This document shows, one piece after another, positions 3,274-11,231 of a DNA stretch of 64,000 nt (position 1 is the stretch's first letter; every line of letters begins with the position of its first letter). Made by a program: the position numbers and the translations under genes. The notes beneath the pieces are model-generated. The model did not search any database, was not told the DNA's origin, and saw only the letters and a list, made by a program, of their open reading frames with translations. Source of the DNA: Candidatus Komeilibacteria bacterium (GTDB lineage Bacteria > Patescibacteriota > Patescibacteriia > UBA1558 > GWA2-36-10); NCBI GenBank assembly GCA_018656065.1, contig JABHZY010000024.1:160970-224969 (forward strand). Reading direction: 5' to 3'.

Positions 3274-3318
3274 TGGAGCCGTCACGCAGACTTGAACTGC
3301 GGACCCCTTCCTTACCAT
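3274..3318 (-). pseudogene. 3' half of a disrupted host tRNA-Thr(GGU) (attR side)
   Basis: The reverse complement reads ATGGTAA-GGAAG-GGGTC-CGCAG-TTCAAGT-CTGCG-TGACGGC-T-CCA. Its anticodon 3' stem and acceptor 3' strand are exactly complementary to the 5' half at 11332-11368. Confidence 0.8.
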
Positions 3319-3445: not shown

Positions 3446-4402
3446 CTATTCTATCAAATCATCAACTCGAATTAGCTCACAATCCCCCTTCATAACTCCT
3501 GTAGGTAAGGATCTTGTATATTTAGCCGTCATACGTGGGTCTTTATGTCCTAATAACTGCTGTAATTTATAATAATTATATTTACTAACATTCAAATAAT
3601 TAACAGCAAAAGTATGCCTAAATTGATGAAGGTGAAATTTCACACCTGATTTTTTAACAATTTGGTCTTTTGTATGCTTCAAGCCATAATTTGTAAATTT
3701 ACTTCCTCTACCAGAAACCCATAGATATTCTGATTTATCTTCTATTATTTTTCTTTCCTTCAAATAATCCCGTAAAGCTACTTTTAATTTATTATTTATG
3801 GGCACCACTCTTAATCGTCTAGACTTAGAAGTCTCTGGGTTTATAGTCAATTCATTATTATTAAAATCTAGACTATCTAATTTTAGACCTAATAATTCTC
3901 CTGATCTTATACCAGTATATAGAAAAGTATTAATTATGGCGAAGTTTCTTTTTCTAATAAAACTATTACGCCAATCTATATGAAAATTAATAGATGACAT
4001 AATACGCTCCACTTCTTTTTTTCTTAAATACTTCCTATCTTCATATTGAACTACTGGATATTCTAGCTCTTCGCTATCGAATGGATTAGAATCAATATGA
4101 TTATGAGCTTTTAACCATTTGAAGAAACGACTTAATCCACTCCAATGTGTTGCAACTGTACTTTTCTTAATACTTTTTACTACCTTATCCCGCCCTATAG
4201 TTCTTTCTCTTTTATCTAACCAACGAAAAAAATGATTAATCATCTTAGAATCTATCATTACTAATGTAATATCGGGGAAACACTGTATTAGTAGCTTAAA
4301 AGTAGTCTCATAGCCTTTTATAGTTGTTGGCGCTAACTTTTCCATATAAGTTAATTGATCTATAAATTCTTTATGTAAATTTACTAGTTTATTATTATCC
4401 AT
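3446..4402 (-). CDS. tyrosine recombinase / phage-type integrase
   Basis: 318 aa. It has a SAM-like N-terminal domain. The catalytic signature is TGIRSGELLGL ... HQFRHTFAVNYL ... LLGHKDPRMTAKYT (R..HxxR..Y). Confidence 0.85.
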   Translation of the reverse strand: MDNNKLVNLHKEFIDQLTYMEKLAPTTIKGYETTFKLLIQCFPDITLVMIDSKMINHFFRWLDKRERTIGRDKVVKSIKKSTVATHWSGLSRFFKWLKAHNHIDSNPFDSEELEYPVVQYEDRKYLRKKEVERIMSSINFHIDWRNSFIRKRNFAIINTFLYTGIRSGELLGLKLDSLDFNNNELTINPETSKSRRLRVVPINNKLKVALRDYLKERKIIEDKSEYLWVSGRGSKFTNYGLKHTKDQIVKKSGVKFHLHQFRHTFAVNYLNVSKYNYYKLQQLLGHKDPRMTAKYTRSLPTGVMKGDCELIRVDDLIE

Positions 4403-5175: not shown

Positions 5176-5805
5176 ATGCCAGTATTTGATGCATCAGTTT
5201 TGAATCCAAAAATTAGAGAAATGCAAACCTATTATGATCCAGAAAGTGGTTGTCAGGTATATAATGATAGGCAGGCTTTTGAATCTTGTAAACAGACTTA
5301 TTATCTAAAAATACAAACTGAACAAAATAAAGAATATAATAACCCAATTGATAATTATGAAGTTGAAACACCCCATCAAAACCTTGAAGATATTAATTAT
5401 GAATTATTATCTATTAAAAAAGAAATAAATGATATTAAAACCGATACCTATAATAAAGGATCCGATTACTTAAATTTAACTTACTTCTTTGCCGGTATTT
5501 TATTAGTATTAATAGTATTTATTTTTATAAAACTATTTAGAAAATATAAAGTTAGAAAAAAAGATCATTTAATTGATAAAATTATAAAGAAACAAGAAAA
5601 AAAATGGTGGCAACTCAAATATATGAGTAAAAATGATTATGGTAAAATAGCTATAATTGGATTAGTCCTAGCTTTTATAAAAACTGGCATCCCTGTACCT
5701 CTAAACCCATTATTAAATTTCTTAGTGAATGTAATAATAACCTTTGGATTATTTGCTGGAATTATGTGGATTATAGAAAAAAGTAAAAGAAACAAAAAAG
5801 AATAA
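5176..5805 (+). CDS. hypothetical membrane protein (island cargo)
   Basis: 209-aa ORF with about 3 hydrophobic helices (FFAGILLVLIVFIFI, IAIIGLVLAFI, VIITFGLFAGIMWII). I recognise no family. Confidence 0.5.
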   Translation: MPVFDASVLNPKIREMQTYYDPESGCQVYNDRQAFESCKQTYYLKIQTEQNKEYNNPIDNYEVETPHQNLEDINYELLSIKKEINDIKTDTYNKGSDYLNLTYFFAGILLVLIVFIFIKLFRKYKVRKKDHLIDKIIKKQEKKWWQLKYMSKNDYGKIAIIGLVLAFIKTGIPVPLNPLLNFLVNVIITFGLFAGIMWIIEKSKRNKKE

Positions 5806-5816
5806 ATTATGTCTAT

Positions 5817-6338
5817 ATGATTATAGAAAATCAATTTATCATTCCTTTTGTTAAAGAAGTTAAGCTTCTAATGAAAGATAAGGAAAATGAATATTACAAA
5901 GATATACCAAAAATAATTATACTAATGACACTTTGGGGTAAAATGGGCTTACATAAAACAGTTAGACGTGTTCATATCGATGATTTTAATAATGATTTCT
6001 ATAATATATGTTATGAACTTACAAGATATGGTTTAACTATCGGCATATGTTTAATGAAAAAAGTTGATAAAAAAAATATAAAAATTATACCAACATGCTA
6101 TGGTATATCATCTCATATTGGCGTAAAAGAATTACCTCACTTCCCATCTATGATTGATAAAATAATTAATCTTGAAGTAGATAAGGTCACTAAAAAATAC
6201 TTTGATGAAAGTCCCCACCGCTATAAAGATTTTACACAAAACCTTATAAAAGAAAATATATTTAGATATTATACTAATAGAGCTTTCCAAATAGCTATAA
6301 ATTCTAATCTTTATGTCACTCTCCCAAAAACTAATTAA
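5817..6338 (+). CDS. hypothetical protein (island cargo)
   Basis: 173-aa ORF, co-directional with and 11 nt after the previous gene. I recognise no family. Confidence 0.45.
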   Translation: MIIENQFIIPFVKEVKLLMKDKENEYYKDIPKIIILMTLWGKMGLHKTVRRVHIDDFNNDFYNICYELTRYGLTIGICLMKKVDKKNIKIIPTCYGISSHIGVKELPHFPSMIDKIINLEVDKVTKKYFDESPHRYKDFTQNLIKENIFRYYTNRAFQIAINSNLYVTLPKTN

Positions 6339-6471
6339 AAAATATCAAAAACTTCATAAAAGAAAATTTGGTGAAAATATAAGTGAAGAAGAATCTGAAG
6401 AAGCATTGAATAATTTAGCTGATTTTTTTCAACTTTTGCTTGATGTAGATAAAAAGAATAATACGAAATAA
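6313..6471 (+). CDS. possible small acidic protein (52 aa), below the ORF-track cutoff
   Basis: My own translation gives MSLSQKLIKKYQKLHKRKFGENISEEESEEALNNLADFFQLLLDVDKKNNTK with a stop at 6469-6471. It overlaps the end of the previous ORF. Confidence 0.3.
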   Translation: MSLSQKLIKKYQKLHKRKFGENISEEESEEALNNLADFFQLLLDVDKKNNTK

Positions 6472-6498
6472 TAATTTAGAAAAAACGACTACTTATGC

Positions 6499-6527
6499 TT
6501 GATTTTATTAGCTTTTTATAGTATACT
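6499..6527 (+). promoter_or_regulatory. sigma70-type promoter of the RT leader
   Basis: TTGATT (6499-6504), a 17-nt spacer, then TATACT (6522-6527). Confidence 0.55.
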
Positions 6528-6533
6528 AGACGT

Positions 6534-6827
6534 ACTTATGGAGAATTGTTCATAAGGAATTATGTTGATAAGGTTCGTCAACTTTATGGCTATCGCCAAT
6601 ACCTGTATATATTCAGGTATGAGAATTAGCAATAAAGTGACTAGATGAACTATTAGATGCCTCAAGAGCTCAAGGAGCTTGGCTGATAATAAGGACTTTA
6701 TACCTCTAAACATAATATAACATAAGTTATATTCCTCCTGGCCGCGTCTAAGCGGTAAGTTACGTTTGGACCTTAATACCACACGAGAAGCCAGGATTCT
6801 CGGTATTAAGGCGTGTATCACAATAAA
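6534..6827 (+). ncRNA. structured ~290-nt leader / candidate RT-associated ncRNA
   Basis: No plausible sense ORF. Hairpins lie at 6535-6556 (cttatg/cataag) and 6599-6620 (atacctg/caggtat). A compound hairpin at 6771-6811 pairs ccttaatacc with ggtattaagg around an inner gagaa/ttctc stem. The leader looks more GC-rich than its flanks by eye. Confidence 0.5.
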
Positions 6828-8228
6828 ATGAATCTACAAAAACTCAAAAGAGAATGGTTGAAATTAGAAAATGATAAAGTACAAGAAAAAAGAAAATACA
6901 AACAATTCAACTATAGAGTAAAAAATATAAGTGAAAAATTGGCTCAAAAAATATGGGAACCAGCATTTGTTGCTGGTTATTCTTTTTATCCATTTATTAA
7001 ATACTATGACATACAACGAAAGTGTAAAAGAGACCCAAAAACTTCAAAAATATATATATCTAAAAAAGAAAGACCTATTTGTCTAACTGGTCATAAGGAA
7101 TCAATTATAGTTTCTTGGTACGCCCACTTACTGAGTCATATATATGAAATATGGATGAAAAAATATAACTTAGAAAATGAGGTGATAGCTTATAGAAGTA
7201 TAGAGGGTAAATCAAGTTATAATTTTGCATCTGATGTTTTTAATTTCTGTAAAAAACAAAAAGAATCTGTAATATTAACTTATGATATAAAAGGCTTTTT
7301 TGATAATCTAGATCATAAAATAATAAAAAAACTCTGGGTAAAATTATTAAAAGAGGTGGATATTGAAAATTCACACAATGGATTACCAAAAGATCATTAT
7401 GCTGTTTATAAATATATGACCTCATACTCTTTTGTAAATATAAATGATGTTTACAGTGCCTTGGGTTTGAAAAAGAAAGATCTAAGAGCTATGTTAAGAT
7501 TATGTTCTGAAGATGACTTCCATCAAAAGATCCAAAGAAAAGGAAAAGATAAAAGTTTAATACAATCAAATAAACCATCTTTAGGAAAAAGGGGTTTTGG
7601 TATTCCACAAGGAGCTGCAATTAGTGCTGTATTGTCCAATATGTATATGATAGACTTTGATCGTTTAGTATCTACTAATGTCAAGAAAATAGGAGGTTTA
7701 TATCGCAGATATAGCGATGATATTGTTGTAGTCGTACCTACAGAACACTACAAAAAAACTAACCAGTCTATAAATAATATTATCTCAAAAATTCTTTTAG
7801 AGCTTGAGCCTACTAAAACTACTATCACTAAAGTAAAGCTGAATAAAGATAATAATTGTAGTTGTTATGACCTAAATGGTAAAAATGTATCTGTGCCTTA
7901 CCTTGGTGTAGAATGGGATGGTAAAAAAATACTACTGCGTGGTAAAACTCTAGCAAGGTACCACAGGAGAATGTCTAAAGCTGTATATACTGTAGCTAAG
8001 AATGCACAGCTTAGAGGACAAAAATATATTCCTAAACGTCGTCTGTATGAAGCATTTACTGGCTATGGAAAGAGTAACTTTCAATCCTATGTATTGAGAG
8101 CGGGAAAAGGGATAAAGTCAAAAGAACTAATAAGACAAATCTCTAAACATAAAGCTATGCAACACCTAAAGAAGAAAATTAAAAAAACTATATCTAAATT
8201 AAAAAACGAACCAAAAAAATCATCTTGA
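6828..8228 (+). CDS. standalone reverse transcriptase (retron / Abi / DRT-UG-like, clade not assignable by eye)
   Basis: RT motifs occur in order: DIKGFFDNLDH, GIPQGAAISAVLSNMYM, YRRYSDDIVVVV (YxDD), LELEPTKTTITKV, VPYLGVEWDG. The track start at 6813 is a GTG; the ATG at 6828 (MNLQKLK) is more likely. Confidence 0.85.
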   Translation: MNLQKLKREWLKLENDKVQEKRKYKQFNYRVKNISEKLAQKIWEPAFVAGYSFYPFIKYYDIQRKCKRDPKTSKIYISKKERPICLTGHKESIIVSWYAHLLSHIYEIWMKKYNLENEVIAYRSIEGKSSYNFASDVFNFCKKQKESVILTYDIKGFFDNLDHKIIKKLWVKLLKEVDIENSHNGLPKDHYAVYKYMTSYSFVNINDVYSALGLKKKDLRAMLRLCSEDDFHQKIQRKGKDKSLIQSNKPSLGKRGFGIPQGAAISAVLSNMYMIDFDRLVSTNVKKIGGLYRRYSDDIVVVVPTEHYKKTNQSINNIISKILLELEPTKTTITKVKLNKDNNCSCYDLNGKNVSVPYLGVEWDGKKILLRGKTLARYHRRMSKAVYTVAKNAQLRGQKYIPKRRLYEAFTGYGKSNFQSYVLRAGKGIKSKELIRQISKHKAMQHLKKKIKKTISKLKNEPKKSS

Positions 8229-8246
8229 ACTAGATGATTTTTTTAT

Positions 8247-9452
8247 TTATTCTCTATTATAATTACCATCGTCATCAAAATTCAAAGATCTACTAATTCC
8301 ACTAGCATTCCATATAATATCAAATACTGATTGAAATTTTTCTGCCGGATTGAAATCTTCTCTATCTATAATAACTGCTGGCAATCTTAAATCATTAGTA
8401 ATTATAGGTAAAGCATCTCTAAAAGGAAAAGGACCCGGTATAGAGACCTTAAAACCCTTAATACCAAATAATGTTAAATAAACATAAAATGGTGGCTTAA
8501 AAGATAACTCCACTAAAAGTTCTACCATACTAGCAACATACTTCATAACACTTGACTCTAACCAAACCATTGGTATTATTGGAGTTGGTTCTCCTTCTGT
8601 TTCTCTAGCCATTAAACCAGAGGCCTCTACGGCCTCTATTTTCCCATCTCTGTATAACTGAGTATATGTTCGTATTGTATCATTATCGTCATTAGAAGCT
8701 GAGTAAGCCGCTACTCCTTCCATATTAATTCTATGACTCCAGCCAGAATTATAGAATGGCCTGAATTTATCGTTACCACCCTCACTTAAAGATAAAATAG
8801 TTGCATTACTTAATTTATGCTCTGTAGTAAAAGCAGATAATGGTAATATATGTATACTGAGAAAATTAGAATTATTTGAAATTATCAATGGTGTGTCGCT
8901 AGCTTGTATATCAAAAACTCTTTTATTTACAAACCCTTTAACATTATCAATCAAATTGCTAGTTTTTATAAACGAAGTTCTCAATTCACCGACGTCCATG
9001 GGATATTTACCATTTGAATTTCTTCTATAGAATTTATCATGGCTCTCAAGAGTAACTCTATGAGGCGCGTCTAAACTTGGATCTATCCTTATGACTAAAA
9101 TAAATTTATTATTATTGGCTATCACTCCTATATCATAATTCATTCTTGGTGCTATAGCTTGTCTCAATAAATTTTCTAATCTTGATTTTTCTGAATCAAT
9201 ATCACCAACCTCAAAACCAATATCTTCTGAAACTATTTCCTGTCCAATACTGCTTTCATCAACTCCAAAAATAATATAACCACCCTCTGTATTAGCAAAT
9301 GATGATACATCAGCTAAAAATTCTCTCTTATTACTATGAGATGTGCCAGGTAGTATAGCCTTAAATTCTAAGGTCTTTTTTTCTGTAACATTAGATTCGA
9401 CAATGGCTTTTATATCAGCCACTTCTATTTGATCAATGTTTTTATCTATCAT
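8247..9452 (-). CDS. Schlafen/AlbA_2-like (divergent AAA) domain protein with an unknown C-terminal domain
   Basis: 401 aa. The N-terminus KTLEFKAILPG...FLADVSSFANTEGGYIIFGVDE matches the AlbA_2 signature as I remember it. Confidence 0.6.
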   Translation of the reverse strand: MIDKNIDQIEVADIKAIVESNVTEKKTLEFKAILPGTSHSNKREFLADVSSFANTEGGYIIFGVDESSIGQEIVSEDIGFEVGDIDSEKSRLENLLRQAIAPRMNYDIGVIANNNKFILVIRIDPSLDAPHRVTLESHDKFYRRNSNGKYPMDVGELRTSFIKTSNLIDNVKGFVNKRVFDIQASDTPLIISNNSNFLSIHILPLSAFTTEHKLSNATILSLSEGGNDKFRPFYNSGWSHRINMEGVAAYSASNDDNDTIRTYTQLYRDGKIEAVEASGLMARETEGEPTPIIPMVWLESSVMKYVASMVELLVELSFKPPFYVYLTLFGIKGFKVSIPGPFPFRDALPIITNDLRLPAVIIDREDFNPAEKFQSVFDIIWNASGISRSLNFDDDGNYNRE

Positions 9453-9461
9453 AAGATTTAA

Positions 9462-10181
9462 TTAGCTTATTGAATCTATAATTCTAAGAAGTTGATTTGA
9501 TGTATGAATTATGTCAGCAGCTTCTTTCGGGTCAAGAAGTTCAACATCTCTATGACTTGATGGATTCTTAAATGTACCTATTGCACCAGTAAACAATTCC
9601 ATTCTAGCTACTTTTTCACCGGGAGCAGCCTCTTGATCTGTTAATATACCATCAGTTGGACTAAATGCTTTCCTCATTAAAGATACTCCAATGTCACTAT
9701 TACTTAAATTAGTTTTATTACGTACTCTTATCTCTACCTCCTTGAATGCTTGAAATATAGCCGTATCATAATCACCTCTAATAAAAGCTTGTTTAACTTT
9801 TCTTACCAAAATTGGGTCTAAACCATCCGAAGGTAAAAGCTCGCCTTTTCTATAGGTTTCAAAATCCTGAGAATCTAATATCTCCTGCCCTCTTGGTGTA
9901 ATGAAAGTCCAATCTATATTTCCAGGTTGTGGAGCTATAAATAATTCTCTTTCAAGCCATCGCCACGCTACTATAAATCTTTTTAAGATTTTTTCCCTAA
10001 GAAGATTATCCTGCCCTGCCCAACTAACAAAATTCTGATCTGTGCCAATAGTAAAATTATGCATATTAAAATTTTGCATACCTGAAACACTTAGATGCTT
10101 CAAAATAACAGGAGCTAACTCCTCTGGTTCCATATCTAATATAGTTTCTATAGGAGGATATATTTCTTCATAAATTGACAT
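9462..10181 (-). CDS. TIGR02391 (Hypoth_Ymh)-like protein
   Basis: 239 aa. The C-terminal half reads GDYDTAIFQAFKEVEIRVRN...LMRKAFSP...GEKVARMELFTGAIGTFKNPSSHRDVELLDPKEAADIIHTSNQLLRIID. This fits the family pattern as I remember it. Confidence 0.6.
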   Translation of the reverse strand: MSIYEEIYPPIETILDMEPEELAPVILKHLSVSGMQNFNMHNFTIGTDQNFVSWAGQDNLLREKILKRFIVAWRWLERELFIAPQPGNIDWTFITPRGQEILDSQDFETYRKGELLPSDGLDPILVRKVKQAFIRGDYDTAIFQAFKEVEIRVRNKTNLSNSDIGVSLMRKAFSPTDGILTDQEAAPGEKVARMELFTGAIGTFKNPSSHRDVELLDPKEAADIIHTSNQLLRIIDSIS

Positions 10182-10236: not shown

Positions 10237-11121
10237 TTATAGAGGATTTTTAATAATCTGCTGTCTTAAATGTTCGCTACTAGCTGCTAAATATATAGTA
10301 GTTGTCTTGATGTCGTTATGCCCCAAAATTCTAGATAAACTATAAATATCACATCCTCCTTCAAGCATAAGCGTAGCAAAAGTATGCCTAAGTCTATGAA
10401 CATTGAAACTAAGGCCCGAGACATCTTTTATCTTAGCAACCAAACGTCTCAGGCCTATTTCTTTGAAACCCATATTACGGTTAAGAGAAGTAAAAAATTC
10501 TGGACAAGTTTTATCTAATCTAGATCTTTCCTGGGAGTATTTTTGTAGTATTGAAACTAATTTATGATTAATTGGAATTATCCTATCTTTATTACCCTTG
10601 CCCTGTCTAACAAAAAGCGTTAAATTCTCTAAATCAATATCAGTATATTTAAGATTTAACAATTCTTTACGCCTAAGGCCCGTAAAAAGAAACGTGGCAA
10701 ATATAGCATGATTTCTATACCTAAGAAATTTGTACTTATATGGATAATTATAAACTACCTCTAATAACCTCTGAGATTCTTGTTTGGTTAATTTTGGTGG
10801 AAGTCTCTTCTCTATCTTAGGAGTCTCAATATCCTGAGCTAAATTAGCCTCCATATGCCCCTGCTCTACGCACCAACGGAAAAATACTACCAATGTCTTG
10901 TGATAGCATACAAACGTGTTAGACGACCAATTTTTAAGCGTACGACCATTAAAAAAGAAGCCCTTGGTATTCTCATCATTTATTTGATCTATATCCTCTA
11001 TCTCAGCATATTTAGTAAATAAAGATACTACGCGTCTATAGCGTTTAATAGTATCATCTGCATATCCTCTGATATATTGAGAATAATCACAAAACTCTTG
11101 AACAAGTAAGTTAATTTTCAT
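10237..11121 (-). CDS. tyrosine recombinase / integrase (XerC/D-like)
   Basis: 294 aa. The catalytic signature is TGLRRKELLNL ... HRLRHTFATLML ... LGHNDIKTTTIYL. It lies next to the island-borne tRNA and attL. Confidence 0.85.
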   Translation of the reverse strand: MKINLLVQEFCDYSQYIRGYADDTIKRYRRVVSLFTKYAEIEDIDQINDENTKGFFFNGRTLKNWSSNTFVCYHKTLVVFFRWCVEQGHMEANLAQDIETPKIEKRLPPKLTKQESQRLLEVVYNYPYKYKFLRYRNHAIFATFLFTGLRRKELLNLKYTDIDLENLTLFVRQGKGNKDRIIPINHKLVSILQKYSQERSRLDKTCPEFFTSLNRNMGFKEIGLRRLVAKIKDVSGLSFNVHRLRHTFATLMLEGGCDIYSLSRILGHNDIKTTTIYLAASSEHLRQQIIKNPL

Positions 11122-11155: not shown

Positions 11156-11231
11156 TGGAGCCGTCATGCGGACTCGAACCGCAGACCCCCACCTTACCAT
11201 GGTGGTGCTCTACCAACTGAGCTATAACGGC
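11156..11231 (-). tRNA. tRNA-Thr(GGU), island-borne intact copy
   Basis: The reverse complement folds by hand. Acceptor is GCCGUUA/UGACGGC. D arm is GCUC-AGUUGGUA-GAGC. Anticodon arm is CCACC-AUGGUAA-GGUGG. T arm is UGCGG-UUCGAGU-CCGCA. It ends UCCA. Confidence 0.85.

Follow-up and report, generated by a model that had tools for sequence, protein, structure and literature searches.

The reverse transcriptase gene and its leader

The window, that is, the whole 64,000-nt stretch of DNA that was analysed and whose positions are used throughout, contains a reverse transcriptase (RT) gene that is preceded on the same strand by a structured leader. The features on the plus strand are the following:

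6499-6527, plus strand: promoter of the ncRNA and the RT, with the -35 box TTGATT (6499-6504), a 17-nt spacer (6505-6521) and the -10 box TATACT (6522-6527)
6534-6815, plus strand: putative DRT2 ncRNA of about 280 nt with predicted ends, in the order 5' handle hairpin, template, 3' scaffold
6535-6556, plus strand: 5' handle hairpin SL1, from the MFE structure and RNAalifold
6729-6815, plus strand: 3' scaffold, composed of the hairpin 6771-6811 and a pseudoknot
6828-8228, plus strand: DRT2 (UG2) reverse transcriptase of 466 aa with a YSDD box, from PADLOC, NCBIfam and Pfam RVT_1

The PADLOC Drt2 model PDLC03757 matches residues 12-457 of the RT with E = 1.7e-118 and 394.8 bits, while the next best PADLOC model, RT_UG39, reaches 84 bits; RT_UG17 gives 65, Drt9 49, and the retron RT models about 40. 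The NCBIfam Drt2 model NF041746 is aligned over its positions 3-410 of 416 (E = 1.9e-111) and gives 373.2 bits, which is 17 below the curated cut-off of 390. Such a score fits with the database entry of the protein, which comes from a Candidatus Komeilibacteria MAG and bears the label 'hypothetical protein'. The catalytic box reads ...YRRYSDDIVVV..., and Y295, D297, and D298 are invariant among the 25 sequences of alignment A1. In a search of 5.8 billion proteins, the closest distinct RT was found to be only 42% identical. The homologs bear the name 'antiviral reverse transcriptase Drt2', and the RT is some 33-36% identical to the proteobacterial DRT2 proteins. Divergent DRT2 systems like the present one are probably under-annotated.

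The sequence TTGATT-17-TATACT is the only good sense-strand match in the promoter scan, and the columns of its -10 box are conserved in the nine-locus alignment A2. Transcription of the ncRNA would start near position 6534. The 310 nt upstream of the RT have a minimum free energy of -93.1 kcal/mol (z = -5.5 relative to shuffles). In the RNAalifold consensus, SL1 shows compensatory changes at columns 70-72/91-93 and 77-79/86-88. In the 3' scaffold, the hairpin loop GCCAGGA (6790-6796) can pair with UCCUGGC (6736-6742) to form the pseudoknot, and segments complementary in this manner are present in 9/9 loci. For the hairpin and the pseudoknot taken together, 90% of the cells are paired and 13 of the 20 pairs have compensatory changes, a value that was reached in 0/500 shuffles and that compares with 34-56% in the slid controls. 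Leaders homologous to the Komeilibacteria one precede the eight closest RT homologs. The predicted architecture of the leader matches the 'pseudoknotted ncRNA' of DRT2.

An Rfam scan of positions 5500-9000 at E<=1 returned no family for the leader. Its sole match, a weak one to FopS inside the RT gene (6944-7016, E = 0.45), overlaps an 8-bp GC-containing hairpin (6958-6978) that lies about 130 nt after the start of the coding region and has T-runs on both sides. The hairpin scores as a bidirectional terminator-like site, of which shuffles give 0.1. It is possibly an attenuator that separates the ncRNA from the RT mRNA, or else the product of chance.

The locus lies between a tRNA-Thr gene (11156-11231, minus strand) and a 45-nt, 84%-identical copy of its 3' half (3274-3318), about 7.9 kb away, and each of the two copies is adjoined by a tyrosine recombinase gene (3446-4402 and 10237-11121). 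In this arrangement, the intervening segment resembles an integrative defence island, which possibly consists of two insertions in tandem at tRNA-Thr. The gene that immediately follows the RT (8247-9452, minus strand) encodes a protein with a Schlafen/AlbA_2 domain and a weak match to PADLOC PDC-S50, and the second gene downstream, also on the minus strand (9462-10181), encodes a Hypoth_Ymh (PF09509) protein. These two may be further defence genes of the island. An AlbA_2 protein also adjoins the DRT2 of the homologous locus L090.

The antisense frame and the predicted neo unit

In the DRT2 system of Klebsiella pneumoniae (KpnDRT2), described by Tang et al. 2024 and Wilkinson et al. [quoted passage not shown] The double-stranded product contains a promoter, split across the repeat junction, and a stop-free neo ORF antisense to the ncRNA; in close Kpn homologs, the unit lengths are 111-129 nt, all divisible by three (PMC11100668; PMC12039810). 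The corresponding features of the Komeilibacteria leader, as predicted here, are the following:

6519-6833, minus strand: full stop-free antisense run of 105 codons, of which only 6564-6725 is given a function
6564-6725, minus strand: predicted neo repeat unit of 162 nt, 54 codons, LCYIMFRGIKSLLSAKLLELLRHLIVHLVTLLLILIPEYIQVLAIAIKLTNLIN, stop-free and in frame across the head-to-tail junction
6519-6563 and 6726-6833, minus strand: flanks of the run, read as a chance extension of it
6564-6566, plus strand: GUU-1, analogue of ACA-1, the first three template bases and predicted end of each cDNA repeat
6726-6728, plus strand: GUU-2, analogue of ACA-2, a conserved GTT and predicted re-annealing site for the cDNA 3' end 5'-AAC-3'
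6576-6581, minus strand: junction -35 TTGACG (neo sense), ending 12 nt before the repeat junction
6714-6719, minus strand: junction -10 TATATT (neo sense), starting 7 nt after the junction
6711-6713, minus strand: codon 5 of the unit and its sole ATG in frame, which follows the -10 immediately and is a candidate start of neo

The original prediction had drawn attention to a minus-strand frame of 101 codons at 6516-6821, and this frame is indeed present. It opens with a GTG (6819-6821), for which no Shine-Dalgarno (SD) sequence is seen by inspection, and ends with a TAA whose plus-strand tta (6516-6518) is located, as had been stated, inside the spacer of the leader promoter (6505-6521). The 101-aa product gave no match in a Pfam search and is as hydrophobic as described, with a GRAVY of 0.75 for the whole ORF and 1.38 for the 54-codon core. 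Over the same span, the two other antisense frames contain 14 and 8 stops and the three sense frames 12, 4, and 9.

That the run is longer than its composition predicts was borne out by 5000 dinucleotide-preserving shuffles of the leader, in which the longest open run over all six frames has a mean of about 50 codons (sd 12), giving a P for a run at least as long as that observed of 0.0008-0.002. When the run is divided into its parts, the 54-codon core has a probability of 0.01 of being open in the neo frame, compared to 0.11 for the 36-codon flank on the scaffold side and 0.28 for the 15-codon 5' flank, which covers the handle and the promoter. Runs of 97-102 codons are also found in two other non-genic stretches of the window. 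These stretches were delimited by a crude gene map that misses small genes, and the two runs are probably such genes; for this reason, the comparison does not discriminate.

The distance from GUU-1 to GUU-2 is 162 nt, that is, 3 x 54, and the circularised reverse complement of the unit has exactly one open frame, which is frame 0 from the junction. ACA does not occur at the positions flanking the unit, where the GUU pair is found instead, and the 5' half of the RNA contains no canonical ACA motif. The junction promoter reads TTGACG-18 nt-TATATT, with the 18-nt spacer existing only in the concatemer. The concatemer is predicted to have a period of 162 nt, with ...CTTATCAAC before the junction and TTATGTTATATT... 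after it; in the neo sense, the predicted junction joins 5'-...AAGTTGACGAACCTTATCAAC to TTATGTTATATTATGTTT...-3'. We looked by eye for a stem like SL2 of Kpn, formed between GUU-2 and the bases 5' of GUU-1, and saw no consistent pairing.

We have also considered other positions of the junction. Placing it at the GTT at 6573 gives a 153-nt unit in which the -35 is only 3 nt from the junction, and the promoter is destroyed. With an ATA/ATA junction (161 nt), the spacer is 17 nt and the frame is lost, and none of the homologs has a similar junction. A 170-nt unit results from the CATAAG repeat at 6551/6721, which is likewise out of frame and lies in SL1. Short direct repeats of the form (C/G)ATAAG(G) occur at 6551-6556/6721-6726 and at 6568-6573/6689-6694, 170 and about 121 nt apart, respectively; we take them as chance, because they are out of frame and show no conservation among the relatives.

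As the ATG at 6711-6713 abuts the -10, it would precede the point at which its own repeat begins to be transcribed, which is predicted about 6-8 nt after TATATT. No SD was found upstream of the in-frame ATGs in the CPR sub-clade, this unit included. In 10 of the 12 closest loci, an ATG in frame is located between -5 and +4 nt from the -10, and the more distant GUU-type loci have an SD and an ATG 12-42 nt after the -10. An AlphaFold2 model from the single sequence shows the Neo unit as one long continuous helix (pLDDT 89.5). This prediction is compatible with the published Neo predictions, which are alpha-helical (PMC11100668; PMC12039810), and says little on function. The predicted Neo units of the GUU class are all hydrophobic, with GRAVY values of 0.1-1.6.

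Counterparts in other DRT2 loci

The eight closest loci (L089-L096), which make nine with the Komeilibacteria locus, have RT identities of only 37-42%, and each of them has a non-coding leader of 400-700 nt. The nine are partly non-independent, L093 and L096 being close relatives and likewise L090 and L095. In addition, eight contigs encode an identical RT; these give no information on drift, because their leaders are identical to that of the Komeilibacteria locus.

With MAFFT and RNAalifold applied to entire leaders, SL1 and the scaffold hairpin were the only structures recovered. Because the alignment of the template region is poor, the analysis was carried out for each locus from anchored motifs. 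The leaders align at both ends: the -10 box and the 5' hairpin with its compensatory changes are followed by a GTT and, 9-12 nt further on, by GTCAA, and further 3' by a CATAAT-like block, a second GTT, and the 3' hairpin pairing just downstream of the latter. The GTCAA, which is the reverse complement of the start of the -35, is the best-conserved motif of the 5' part of the template, and TTGACx stands at the same place in the homologs. The GTT at the GUU-1 position is conserved in 9/9 loci, 12 or 9 nt upstream of the reverse complement of the -35 hexamer.

The GTT...GTT distances are 162 nt in the Komeilibacteria locus and 132, 150, 141, 138, 141, 147, 147, and 141 nt in the other loci, all nine divisible by three, with the GUU positions picked from the alignment and, in loci with several GTTs, the pair that fits chosen. 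Each of the eight homologous units has exactly one antisense open frame, starting at the junction. In the junction promoters of the homologs, the -35 precedes the junction by 12 or 9 nt and the -10 follows it by 6 or 9 nt, and these offsets (12+5 or 9+8) compensate to give a 17-nt spacer in all eight. The expectation that the antisense frame would stay open in homologous loci despite drift is thus upheld for the equivalent core, with near-complete drift of the sequence. The expected in-frame repeat junction is likewise predicted, at the level of sequence, in every homologous locus.

The openness of the frame over the whole leader, which was the starting point of the original prediction, is real at this locus (6519-6833), whereas its extent is not conserved, and the putative functional unit takes up 162 of the 315 nt. 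In the homologs, antisense stops appear 2-20 codons past the unit on the scaffold side, and stops over the 3' part of the leader are present in L089, L090, L091, L092, and L096. In most homologs, the longest antisense open run covers only part of the leader, from about -300 to about -110 when counted from the start of the RT. Across the whole scaffold, the neo frame is open in 3 of the 20 GUU-type loci, compared to 2.24 expected. Since the P values of the flanks are unremarkable and the openness of the scaffold is not above expectation, we explain the whole-leader openness by a 54-codon core under selection, which chance has most likely prolonged over the scaffold and the handle. In the scaffold, the constraint on the DNA acts instead through the RNA. 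No support was seen for the idea that full-leader openness keeps read-through cDNAs translatable.

A blind scan, in which the triplet-repeat pair that best rebuilds a promoter was selected for each locus with the frame ignored, gave in-frame units in 55/72 loci, 53 of them open, and recovered the ACA units of the Kpn-like (proteobacterial) loci. After the addition of 80 metagenomic loci, a total of 168 DRT2 loci was available, for which the promoter-filtered pairs are distributed over the remainders of division by three as follows:

ACA pairs, 168 loci: mod 0/1/2 = 44/8/5, open 44
GTT pairs, 168 loci: mod 0/1/2 = 34/5/7, open 31

The control triplets ATA, TAT, TGT, AGT, AAT, and AAA are approximately uniform over mod 0/1/2. 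These distributions point to GUU as a second flanking motif that recurs across lineages, in units of 99-171 nt. Overall, a GUU...GUU pair is found at equivalent places in about 20 loci.

Proposed mechanism and relation to known systems

The present analysis makes it highly probable that the leader is a DRT2 defence ncRNA and that its central 162 nt (6564-6725) constitute, in antisense, a neo proto-gene. An antisense open frame is to be expected in a DRT2 leader, because the known mechanism predicts such a frame. The original suggestion, according to which the RT copies part of the leader and the open antisense strand is the coding one, was essentially right, since the published neo lies antisense to the ncRNA template. 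It gains support from the RT family, the shuffles, and the homologs, with the restriction that only the core, and not the whole leader, would form the unit.

By analogy to KpnDRT2, the RT would bind to the 5' handle and the pseudoknotted 3' scaffold of the ncRNA and would copy the template from just upstream of GUU-2 to GUU-1. The 5'-AAC-3' end of the cDNA would re-anneal to GUU-2 and allow a new round, leading to a head-to-tail concatemer of 162-nt units. Upon second-strand synthesis, the junction would join TTGACG and TATATT into a sigma-70-type promoter that is absent from the genome. Its transcription would give an endless ORF, because 162 is 3 x 54 and the frame is without a stop, and the encoded hydrophobic helical repeat of 54 residues would arrest the phage-infected cell. 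The cDNA synthesis, the exact jump site, the transcription, the translation start, the toxicity, and the defence are elements that we infer from this analogy.

It is very improbable that the absence of stops from one antisense frame of an AT-rich structured leader is a coincidence without significance for coding. In favor of chance are the flanks, which are unremarkable singly, the open scaffolds in relatives, whose number is close to expectation, and the long runs in the two crude non-genic stretches of the window; however, the run as a whole has a P of about 0.001, the core is open in 8/8 diverged homologs with lengths divisible by three and a junction promoter, and the in-frame enrichment, seen with GTT and ACA, does not extend to the control triplets. 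We regard as extremely improbable the idea of a conventional antisense gene, expressed from the chromosome as a 101-aa hydrophobic protein from the GTG at 6821 to the stop at 6516. The ends of this ORF are not conserved, with stops in the homologs 2-20 codons past the unit on the scaffold side, and the same DNA is under RNA-structure selection, as seen from the covariation. Amino acids are conserved only where the promoter hexamers and the GUU dictate them. The antisense promoter matches in the RT gene (6937 and 7028) are weak and no more than shuffles give. The ORF is intact, has a GTG start, and encodes a helical and hydrophobic product, like a small membrane protein, but it has neither an SD by inspection nor a Pfam match.

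A further alternative, which we judge unlikely, is that the leader is a DRT2 ncRNA with a different RT product, either a non-concatemeric cDNA or one with a period of 161 nt (ATA/ATA) or 153 nt (GTT 6573), such that no endless ORF arises. The 161-nt period would have the ideal 17-nt spacer, and a start codon linked to an SD is missing from the 162-nt unit; however, the former is out of frame and without a counterpart in the homologs, and the 153-nt period destroys the promoter by bringing the -35 to 3 nt from the junction. The combination of in-frame length, open frame, and promoter in about 20 GUU-type loci is, moreover, hard to explain without translation.

Returning to the neo-type reading, the locus shares with KpnDRT2 a single RT gene with a same-strand upstream ncRNA of about 280 nt under its own promoter, the arrangement of a 5' hairpin handle, a central template, and a 3' pseudoknotted scaffold, a unit divisible by 3 with one stop-free antisense frame and with identical trinucleotides predicted to flank it, -35 and -10 elements at opposite ends of the unit that would form a promoter only across the junction, and a Neo repeat predicted to be alpha-helical. 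It differs in the flanking triplet, which is GUU rather than ACA, in the spacer of 18 nt, and in the position of the junction, which is separated by 12 nt from the preceding -35 and by 6 nt from the following -10, compared to 6 and 11 nt in Kpn-like loci. The unit is 162 nt (54 aa) long, compared to 111-129 nt in the Kpn clade, and its ATG abuts the -10 without an SD, whereas Kpn has an RBS and an ATG 13 nt downstream. The host is also different, being a member of the CPR/Patescibacteria. The locus thus appears as a DRT2-type system in Candidatus Komeilibacteria that is a variant in the GUU triplet, the junction register, and the start-codon context, and it reveals no new mechanism.

Other RTs with ncRNA templates were compared as well. 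Retron RTs have, as is predicted for the present one, an adjacent structured ncRNA as template, whereas the retron RT models are weak on the Komeilibacteria protein (about 40 bits). Retron msDNA is a single-copy branched product and is not translated. DRT10 (UG17) and DRT9 (UG28) are described as defence RTs that repeatedly copy a short stretch of a cis-encoded ncRNA, making protein-primed tandem-repeat or homopolymer DNA, and a translated ORF is reported in none of the abstracts on these systems. The Komeilibacteria locus differs from them in having a 54-codon open frame with promoter elements and an RT with 395 bits for Drt2, compared to 49 for Drt9 and 65 for RT_UG17.

On balance, we favor the view that the CPR loci, together with those of several other lineages, form a distinct 'GUU class' of DRT2. 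In this class, GUU rather than ACA would serve in jumping, the junction would be 6 (or 3) nt further from the -35, and the units, longer at 120-171 nt, would encode strongly hydrophobic helical repeats; in the CPR sub-clade, translation would start without an SD at the ATG embedded in the junction -10. If this is true, neo-type gene synthesis extends to clades where the original studies could not annotate Neo. According to Tang et al. 2024, confident annotation of Neo is restricted to the Kpn-like clade and is harder elsewhere (PMC11100668). A search of their supplement for CPR taxon names found none, and our literature search found no paper on DRT2 in CPR bacteria/Patescibacteria or on the GUU class. 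The neo genes escape standard annotation, and the GUU motif with its different junction register provides a concrete rule by which Neo can be annotated in those divergent clades of DRT2 that the founding papers left open. It is of interest in this respect that the rolling-circle gene-building logic of DRT2, with its in-frame unit, split promoter, and flanking triplets, is readable from the sequence of an ultra-small CPR bacterium.

In the promoter-guided scan, in-frame open units were also obtained with other triplets, namely, ATC with units of 147-150 nt in Acinetobacter (L029, L041, L045, L057, L058, L063), TTG or ATT in Dyella loci (L004, L053, L070, L039, L046), and CTT in Verrucomicrobiota-type MAGs (L002, L031), which suggests that further DRT2 clades use other flanking triplets. 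Finally, a DRT2 homolog of 36% identity is present in locus L003 (DATGWK010000045.1), on a contig binned as Candidatus Nanoarchaeia archaeon; this is either an archaeal DPANN genome with a DRT2 or a mis-binned contig.
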